Source of the DNA: Candidatus Heimdallarchaeota archaeon
GTDB lineage: Archaea; Asgardarchaeota; Heimdallarchaeia; Heimdallarchaeales; Heimdallarchaeaceae
Length of the DNA: 64,000 nt
NCBI GenBank assembly: GCA_030603365.1
Contig: JAUVXV010000016.1
Span: forward strand, 1-64,000
Direction of reading: 5' to 3'
Part shown: positions 10,067 through 11,577 of the stretch, in pieces
Position numbering within the stretch: the first letter of the stretch is position 1
Layout: every line of letters begins with the position of its first letter
Position numbers and translations under genes: made by a program
Notes under the pieces: generated by a model
Databases searched by the model: none
What the model was told of the DNA's origin: nothing
The model's input: only the letters and a program-made list of their open reading frames with translations

Positions 10067-11577
10067 AGGAGGTGATCCACATGCGGTATGTAAGCTACTA
10101 CCTACATACTTCCGCAGGTTCCCCTACGGATACCTTGTTACGACTTTTGCATCGTCACGAGACCCAGTTTCGATTGAACCGTTACGCCTCAACCTCAACC
10201 GAGCCTCACTTCGTTGCAACGACGGGCGGTGTGTACAAAAAGCGGGGACGTATTCTCCGCGCGCTGATGACACGCGGATACTAGGTGCTCCATGTTCATG
10301 AGGTCGGTTACAGACCTCAATCCCTACTGCGAACAGGTTTGGAGGTCCGCTTCTCCTTTCGGAGTCGCTTCTCATTGTCCTGTCCATTGTGATGCGTGTG
10401 TAGCCCTGGGGATTTGGAGCATACTGACCTGCCGTGGCCCGCCCTTTCATCCATCTTCATCGATGGCGATCCCCCTATTGTCCTCAGCCAAGCCGCAGCT
10501 TGCTCTTAGCAAATAGGGGCGCGGGTCTCGCTCGTTTACTCACTTAAGAGCACACCTCACGGCACGAGCTTGAGACGGCCATGCACTACCTCTCTGTCTT
10601 ATTCGTGTAAGGTCTTCAGCCTGACACACATTTGACAGTCGCCCCAGGTGAGTTTCCTCGCGTTGAGTCGAATTAAACCACACATCCCGTACCTTGTGGC
10701 GCTTTCCCGTCAATTCATTTAAGTTTCAGCCTTGCGACCGTACTCCCCAGGCGGAGGACTTAATAGTTTCCCTTTGGCACTGACCAGGCCCTTAGCCATG
10801 GCCAACACCTAGTCCTCATCGTTTACGGCCAGGACTACAGGGGTCTCTAATCCCTTTCGCTCCCCTGGCTTTCATCCATCACCGTCGGAGATATTCCAGT
10901 GAACCGCCTTCGCCACTGTGGGTCCTGCGGGAATCAACGCATTTCACCGCTTCTCCCGCAGTACCGTTCACCTCTCCTATTCCCTAGGTTAGCGGTATCT
11001 CTGACAGCCTACAAGTTGGGCTTGCAGATTTAACCAGAGACCTACTTACCCGGCTACGGATGCTTTAAGCCCAATAATCGTCCTAGGCACTCGCAGAGCT
11101 GGTTTTACCGCGGCGGCTGGCACCAGCCTTGCCCTCTGCTTGCTGTTGGAGCTACGAACACTCCATCACAGCCAGGGTTCTCCCTGGCACTCAGATTCGC
11201 GGTCTCACGCTTTCGCGCATTGGGCACAATTCCTAACTGCTGCACACCGTAGTGCTAGGACCAGTGTCTAAGTGTCCTTCTCGGGGCGCTAACTCTCATT
11301 ACCCCTACCGATCATCGCCTAAGTGATCCTTTACATCACTTACTAGCTAATCGGCCGCGGCCTCATCCTGTGGCGGACCGGAGTCCATTTCGGTATTGGC
11401 TCCTTCCAGAATTCCATACCTATCGGGTATTAATCTCAGTTTCCCGAGGTTATCCCCGTCCATAGGGCAGATTGGCGACGTGTTACTGAGCCTTTCGCCA
11501 TGCCTCCGAAGAGACATAAAACTTGCATGTCTATTGCGAATCTGATAGCACCTAGGTCCGGCATGATCAACCGGCTT
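10067..11577 (-). rRNA. rrs: 16S rRNA (about 1480 nt plus a 31-nt intron)
   Basis: 5' CCGGTTGATCATGCCGGA, GTGCCAGCCGCCGCGGTAA, AAACTTAAATGAATTGACGG, GTACACACCGCCCGTC, 3' GGATCACCTCCT. Confidence 0.98.
10080..10110 (-). other. 31-nt bulge-helix-bulge (BHB) mini-intron in 16S rRNA, immediately 5' of the anti-SD tail
   Basis: Sense: ACC-TGCG-GA^A-GTATGTAGG-TAGTAG-CTTACATAC-CGCA-TG^T-GG. This gives a 4-bp central helix and two 3-nt bulges. Excision restores CCTGCGGA|TGGATCACCTCCT. Confidence 0.9.

Follow-up and report, generated by a model that had tools for sequence, protein, structure and literature searches.

The 16S rRNA gene of this heimdallarchaeal genome carries 31 extra nucleotides close to its 3' end, immediately upstream of the sequence that holds the anti-Shine-Dalgarno (anti-SD) motif. 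The window, that is, the whole stretch of 64,000 nt analysed here, is the start of a contig in a metagenome-assembled genome (MAG) of 3.65 Mb and 33% G+C that is 89% complete. What becomes of these nucleotides: are they spliced out of the precursor, kept in the mature ribosome, used to control access to the anti-SD, or are they an error of assembly? We think it very likely that they are a short non-coding hairpin intron with bulge-helix-bulge (BHB) junctions, placed at the base of helix 45 and spliced constitutively from pre-16S, and we treat them below as a putative intron.

The insert and its predicted splice register

Read on the minus strand, with E. coli numbering obtained by counting back from A1542, the gene runs through GGGGAACC, TGCG and GA into the 31 nt and resumes with T and GGATCACCTCC (Table 1). 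TGCG (10116-10113) and CGCA (10085-10082) form a central helix in which all four pairs are Watson-Crick, flanked by the bulges GAA (10112-10110) and TGT (10081-10079), and a cut after the second base of each bulge would join ...CCTGCGGA to TGGATCACCTCC, a product with 0 mismatches to intron-free family members. The initial annotation had proposed this BHB and this restoration of the canonical 3' end, and both hold up. Among 20,000 dinucleotide shuffles of the insert, 0.25% place a Watson-Crick central helix in register and 0.015% combine the central helix with the stem (0.3% if G-U pairs are allowed in the helix). A hairpin does cap the BHB as described, but its stem has 10 bp, including two G-U pairs, rather than 9 bp. 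The portrayal of the last 13 nt as a micro-exon fits the mature rRNA but not the precursor, in which exon 2 continues into the trailer. On the exon side the BHB is weak, with a direct helix of only 2 bp (CC/GG) that is extended by a predicted 8-bp helix.

Table 1. Coordinates of features at the 16S locus, numbered along the window.
Feature	Position	Strand	Remarks
5' arm, pre-16S leader-trailer stem	11700..11751	-	starts with exact copy of anti-SD motif, ATCACCTCC
16S rRNA gene	10067..11577	-	Rfam RF01959 match 11577-10098; only copy found; mature ends approximate
Helix 45	10111..10132	-	U1506-A1527; GGAA loop 10122-10119; mutually exclusive with BHB
BHB 5' strand	10110..10116	-	central helix TGCG (U1522-G1525) and bulge GAA; predicted cut 10111/10110
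31-nt hairpin BHB intron (putative)	10080..10110	-	after E. coli position 1527, between A1527 and U1528
Intron hairpin	10086..10109	-	10-bp stem (10109-10100 / 10095-10086), 4-nt loop, z = -3.4
BHB 3' strand	10079..10085	-	central helix CGCA and bulge TGT; predicted cut 10080/10079
3'-terminal 13 nt of 16S	10067..10079	-	U1528 to anti-SD CCUCC; from exon 2
Anti-SD and first trailer bases	10064..10071	-	pairs with 10128-10121 (helix 45 5' strand) in predicted splice-competent fold; constrained folding
3' arm, leader-trailer stem	9975..10020	-	long near-perfect duplex

With the insert removed the gene is 1483 nt long, and compared with intron-free relatives this is its sole insertion of at least 10 nt; the Rfam RF01959 model ends at 10098, within the insert. 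The 1492R primer site (10128-10146) lies 5' of the insert, which would therefore be missed by amplicons, as had been pointed out. At 31 nt (<50 nt) and with no homing endonuclease ORF, the insert belongs with the short hairpin BHB introns, and judged by its sequence it has all the sequence-level defining features of an archaeal rRNA intron of that class. A group I intron is ruled out, as a 31-nt single hairpin has no P3-P9 core and the window contains no Rfam intron match. The rRNA genes of the window (1-2021, 3969-14172) are unlinked, the 5' end of the 23S gene lying 8 kb from the 3' end of the 16S gene; the contig end truncates the 23S gene, and the 16S gene is flanked by four helical-repeat-like ORFs of 480-560 aa that resemble one another.

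Could the insert be an assembly artefact, a contaminant or a pseudogene copy? The genome is an incomplete MAG and rRNA genes are prone to mis-assembly, yet inserts of the same length at the same site, with divergent and covarying sequence, recur in independent assemblies from many samples. The gene contains the only 16S 3' end in the whole assembly, apart from the insert it shows no further insertion and matches same-genus genes at 94-96% identity, and the insert copies no other genomic sequence (a search of the genome for a donor copy gave 22 of 31 positions as its best match). We regard an error of this kind as extremely improbable.

Variants, neighbouring sites and distribution

Nine distinct sequences occupy position 1527 in family genomes and metagenome contigs, all 31 nt long and all ending in an invariant CGCA followed by two bases. 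Stem pairs 1-8 are paired in 9/9 variants, including a distant lineage whose insert agrees with the others at 6-14 of 31 bases. Across the eight alignable variants 97.7% of cells pair, with four pairs changed on both sides, compared with 15-52% in slid registers; this covariation lies above every slid register and above 500/500 shuffles, the shuffle test being inflated by relatedness. The central helix is constant at 1527 and so gives no covariation signal of its own. No conserved loop sequence or protein-binding motif was found among the nine variants, and inspection revealed neither a C box (RUGAUGA) nor a D box (CUGA) in any of them, which rules out an intron-hosted box C/D guide RNA. In the surrounding helix, 1508:1527 covaries as T:A, G:C and C:G and 1507:1528 as A:T and G:C, which places the junction between the final two pairs of helix 45, with the basal pair A1507-U1528 straddling it. 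The A before the junction is, on this covariation, the lineage's own base, paired as T1508:A1527.

These observations bear on the possibility that the insert is retained in the mature rRNA as an expansion hairpin that stacks on helix 45 and shifts the anti-SD by 31 nt. Hairpin covariation alone is compatible with a retained structure, Asgard rRNAs do have expansion segments (PMC7594248), and in the minimum-energy fold 8 bp of helix 45 and the hairpin stand side by side. However, retention would break the covarying 1507:1528 pair, and it leaves unexplained both the invariant CGCA and a 3-nt bulge in the exact cutting register. Membership in the expansion segment class is also at odds with a location at 1527, an invariant core position, and with patchy presence, which flips among near-identical 16S genes. 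Finally, the same geometry recurs at seven other sites, including within the GGAA loop of helix 45. We consider retention very improbable.

Those other sites come from the survey of Asgard 16S 3' ends that the initial annotation had suggested. We scanned GTDB and 400 genomes from the phylum for genes in which the 1494-1506 motif is intact and the insert does not exceed about 70 nt; longer introns may therefore exist elsewhere. The scans returned BHB-shaped inserts after 1499, 1512 (a site assigned by reading of locus L035), 1513, 1517, 1518, 1519, 1527 and 1531, eight sites that span 33 nt (1499-1531) inside the last 45 bases of Asgard 16S. The carriers are records named Heimdall-, Thor-, Hermod- and Freyarchaeota, one labelled Nitrososphaeria, and a complete genome of 2,808,651 bp. 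At every site the BHB rule yields the canonical sequence, and the central helix tracks the local exon sequence (at the other sites GATG/CATC, GCTG/CAGC, GCCG/CGGC, GGGG/CCCT and TAGC/GCTA); 1513 inserts in the window's family usually have one U-U mismatch in this helix. Some inserts sit within the GGAA loop, where retention would destroy the loop. BHB inserts are absent from the listed rows of two large families (f14 and f26, probably Lokiarchaeia), and the GTDB scan gave no genuine case in bacteria, where the matches proved to be downstream motif repeats, duplications or N-gaps.

Several loci met in these scans have unusual arrangements. One 16S gene of the same family has three BHB introns (1499, 1513 and 1527) with 14-nt exons between them (L086:1-140). 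Another locus (L107; G316:C2, ~61720-61845) has three tandem BHB hairpins of 29-30 nt in the helix-45 GGAA loop, one after 1517 and two after 1518, with a common loop ACATTTCGT; as read from its sequence, this array would need ordered splicing with a one-base exon. At 1513, one locus has a 167-nt BHB intron whose first bases partly duplicate its own target site (L108; G093:C1, from 450880). In a Fimbriimonadales MAG, copies of the 16S 3' end have helix 45 replaced by unrelated sequence that is not BHB-like (L050:4596-4664, 7530-7606). A lineage that is probably Asgard has a 16S gene with inserts along its whole length (L088:700-3140 and L073); they include, at 1527, an unrelated intron of 31 nt and, in the vicinity of helix 45, long inserts that contain C/D-box-like words.

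Within the window's family the distribution is patchy. Fifteen genomes have an assembled 16S 3' end; the 1527 insert is present in 5/15 and the 1513 insert in 6/15, with at least one insert in 9/15 and none in 6/15. The 10/15 genomes from which the 1527 intron is absent include both complete ones, and sister taxa about 99% identical in 16S also lack it. Sister rows of the 16S tree differ in this respect (G025 has the 1527 intron, G029 does not), and the window has the 1527 intron only while its nearest tree row (99% over 451 columns) has the 1513 intron only. The 1527 introns fall into two sequence types, and these are intermingled in two well supported clades, an incongruence between intron type and host tree that could partly mirror chimeric rRNA assembly in MAGs. 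All 1513-positive loci (7/7) have a longer trailer in common, which suggests that the whole 3' block of 16S was exchanged by recombination. The 1527 intron is probably a tolerated element that is gained, lost and exchanged between relatives.

What might drive such exchange? No homing endonuclease adjacent to the 1527 intron was found. The genome's LAGLIDADG matches were considered as drivers and rejected: they lie on another contig, in ORFs of >1000 aa, and are probably inteins. In a same-genus species, a 16S intron of ~795 nt located farther upstream in the gene than 1527 encodes a LAGLIDADG-like ORF of ~250 aa (L068:4518-5311, L089), and this endonuclease has no match in the window's genome or in the other loci compared. 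In genome G025, 347 bp comprising the 3' end of 16S, its intron and the trailer are duplicated at a distance of 14.5 kb from the full gene (contig C23; L109:671-1016, 15187-15531).

Folding, processing and the proposed course of splicing

The central helix uses U1522-G1525, which is part of the 3' strand of helix 45, so the BHB and helix 45 exclude one another. Folding gives -29.7 kcal/mol for the helix-45 fold and -26.6 to -27.2 kcal/mol for the BHB fold, with a predicted BHB share of 6-8% in the local context, <1% in longer contexts and 1-37% across variants. Wherever TACG follows the anti-SD, as it does in eight variants, folding predicts the helix listed in Table 1 between the anti-SD and the released 5' strand of helix 45; the gaps are 0.3-3.9 kcal/mol. 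This modelled alternative fold predicts that splicing would precede two late maturation steps (PMC8339473), 3' trimming and the action of KsgA/Dim1 on the loop.

The enzymes named in the initial annotation as the splicing machinery, the tRNA splicing endonuclease EndA and the ligase RtcB, are both encoded in the genome. The catalytic EndA subunit scores above the TIGR00324 cut-off and its catalytic Tyr, His and Lys are visible; a second subunit of the structural type is also present, and a two-subunit EndA has been reported for most Asgard genomes (bioRxiv 10.64898/2026.10.13.758758). The two EndA genes lie at C13:113620-114222 and C1:60705-61253. Several tRNA genes of the genome carry introns.

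From the sequence, its geometry and conservation, and these enzymes we infer transcription, an alternative fold, cutting and ligation, in that order. Pre-16S would be transcribed with insert and trailer. Once helix 45 had opened, U1522-G1525 would be available to CGCA of the intron, and their pairing would give the 4-bp central helix; the 5' strand released from helix 45 is predicted to pair with the anti-SD and the first trailer bases, in a fold that lies 2.5-3 kcal/mol above the helix-45 fold. By established BHB chemistry, the two-subunit EndA would cut after the second bulge bases and RtcB would join the exons, whereupon helix 45 could fold fully, with KsgA/Dim1 methylation and 3' trimming presumably following. 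In favour of an intron are the 0.015% shuffle rate, the exact product, the nine covarying variants, the seven other sites, the enzymes together with the tRNA introns, and the patchiness; against it stand fold energies that favour helix 45, the 2-bp exon helix, the invariance of the central helix and possible MAG chimeras. In four metatranscriptome runs, whose Logan contigs over 9960-10560 come from relatives and not from the window's strain, lineage-specific contigs end at 10117-10127, before the junction, no contig covers the insert and no joint spans it, a gap that carries no weight either way, as intron-free relatives would look spliced in such contigs.

One might expect EndA to be required in any case, at the pre-16S processing stem. 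For this family we reject that idea: no canonical BHB was found in the leader-trailer stem, whose duplex is conserved across the family. The 5' arm begins with a copy of the anti-SD motif, ATCACCTCC, at 11751-11743 of the minus strand, which is conserved in relatives. Archaeal 16S genes without a BHB stem are known elsewhere (PMC12918454). The genome also encodes an intact-looking RNase III with a dsRBD (G000 C11:129334-129705), as do 26/30 other family genomes (27/31 in all) and 54/83 genomes of the class, although archaea have been said to have no RNase III (PMC11404451). Together with the stem structure, this suggests that RNase III processes pre-rRNA in Heimdallarchaeia in the bacterial manner. 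Given a stem without a BHB and an RNase III, the 1527 intron may be the only EndA-dependent step in 16S maturation of its carriers.

Anti-SD use, regulation and known systems

As the initial annotation had it, the anti-SD lies 3' of the junction, and it is used in this genome: SD motifs are concentrated 9-14 nt ahead of start codons and are found before 22% of 1860 ORFs; for operon-internal ORFs the share is 47%, for control windows 2-4%. Such enrichment implies that the anti-SD is needed. A TATA-like peak near -29 from start codons points to the presence of leaderless mRNAs as well, to judge from promoter position.

The same annotation had raised the idea that splicing is regulated. Pre-30S could be held unspliced, or cut without ligation to leave 30S subunits without an anti-SD for leaderless mRNAs. 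The placement of the junction upstream of an anti-SD that is in use, the coexistence of SD-led genes with a leaderless signature, the possible status of the intron as the sole EndA step in 16S maturation, and the predicted sequestration of the anti-SD in the BHB fold would all suit such a scheme. It is harder to reconcile with the distribution, as most family genomes, the complete ones and close sister taxa do without the intron, and the eight sites are interchangeable and come and go like tolerated elements. Nor do the variants share a loop sequence or protein-binding motif, and EndA and RtcB are housekeeping enzymes that also serve tRNA splicing. Regulation through splicing thus found no support, and we judge it very improbable. 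A related speculation, which strikes us as similarly doubtful, is that pre-16S is released by RNase III and not by EndA, and that the 1527 intron is a checkpoint, cut only with helix 45 open and the anti-SD sequestered, through which EndA and RtcB gate the anti-SD. If this were true, failed ligation would remove the anti-SD and shift translation between SD-led and leaderless mRNAs. In E. coli, the 16S 3' terminus is cut by MazF and re-ligated by RtcB, so that the anti-SD end is separated and rejoined (Temmel et al., PMC5416887); a stress toxin acts there on mature ribosomes and no intron is involved, and the analogy concerns only the regulatory scheme.

The reading we prefer is constitutive splicing of a tolerated intron. 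Short (<50 nt) hairpin 'HP' BHB introns occur in 16S of Thermoproteales, Desulfurococcales and Caldiarchaeum, at 13 loci, the most 3' of which is 1391 (Jay and Inskeep 2015, PMC4496867). The 1527 intron resembles them in size, hairpin body, BHB junction, lack of an ORF, location in highly conserved rRNA and patchy presence, and its neighbouring sites are closely spaced as theirs are (901/908, 1205/1213). It differs in its site in the base of helix 45, 3' of 1492R, and in its Asgard host, and whereas co-conversion was shown for 1205/1213, no adjacent endonuclease-coding intron was found at 1527. The non-canonical and multiple BHB introns of Asgard tRNA genes share with it the phylum, the motif, repeated gains and the two-subunit EndA (Valentin-Alvarado et al. 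2024, PMC11291895; bioRxiv 10.64898/2026.10.13.758758), but they interrupt tRNA and not 16S rRNA. Neither rRNA nor 16S is mentioned in the preprint, and where PMC11291895 deals with introns it is with those of tRNA. An archaeal group I intron at SSU 1498 (Nawrocki et al. 2018, PMC6125680) likewise lies in the 3' minor domain of SSU rRNA, but it is a self-splicing ribozyme, and 31 nt are too short for a group I core. Our literature search, thin on subscription journals, turned up neither Asgard 16S introns nor any site past 1498. The kind of element is thus already known, and it is for site 1527 and for this lineage that we found no report.

The sites described here extend the archaeal 16S intron map from 1391 to 1531. 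There are practical consequences for surveys of these organisms. Rfam-type annotation stops inside the intron, and a genome annotated in this way would seem to have no anti-SD. Sites from 1512 on escape 1492R amplicons, and the 1499 intron breaks the 1492R site itself. Primers to the 3' terminus (1525R/1541R type) are presumably interrupted by the introns. Because a single gene can have as many as three introns, with exons no longer than 14 nt, ordered splicing becomes testable in the most constrained part of the SSU, and a 31-nt substrate whose BHB competes with helix 45 offers a simple in vitro test of EndA during ribosome assembly.
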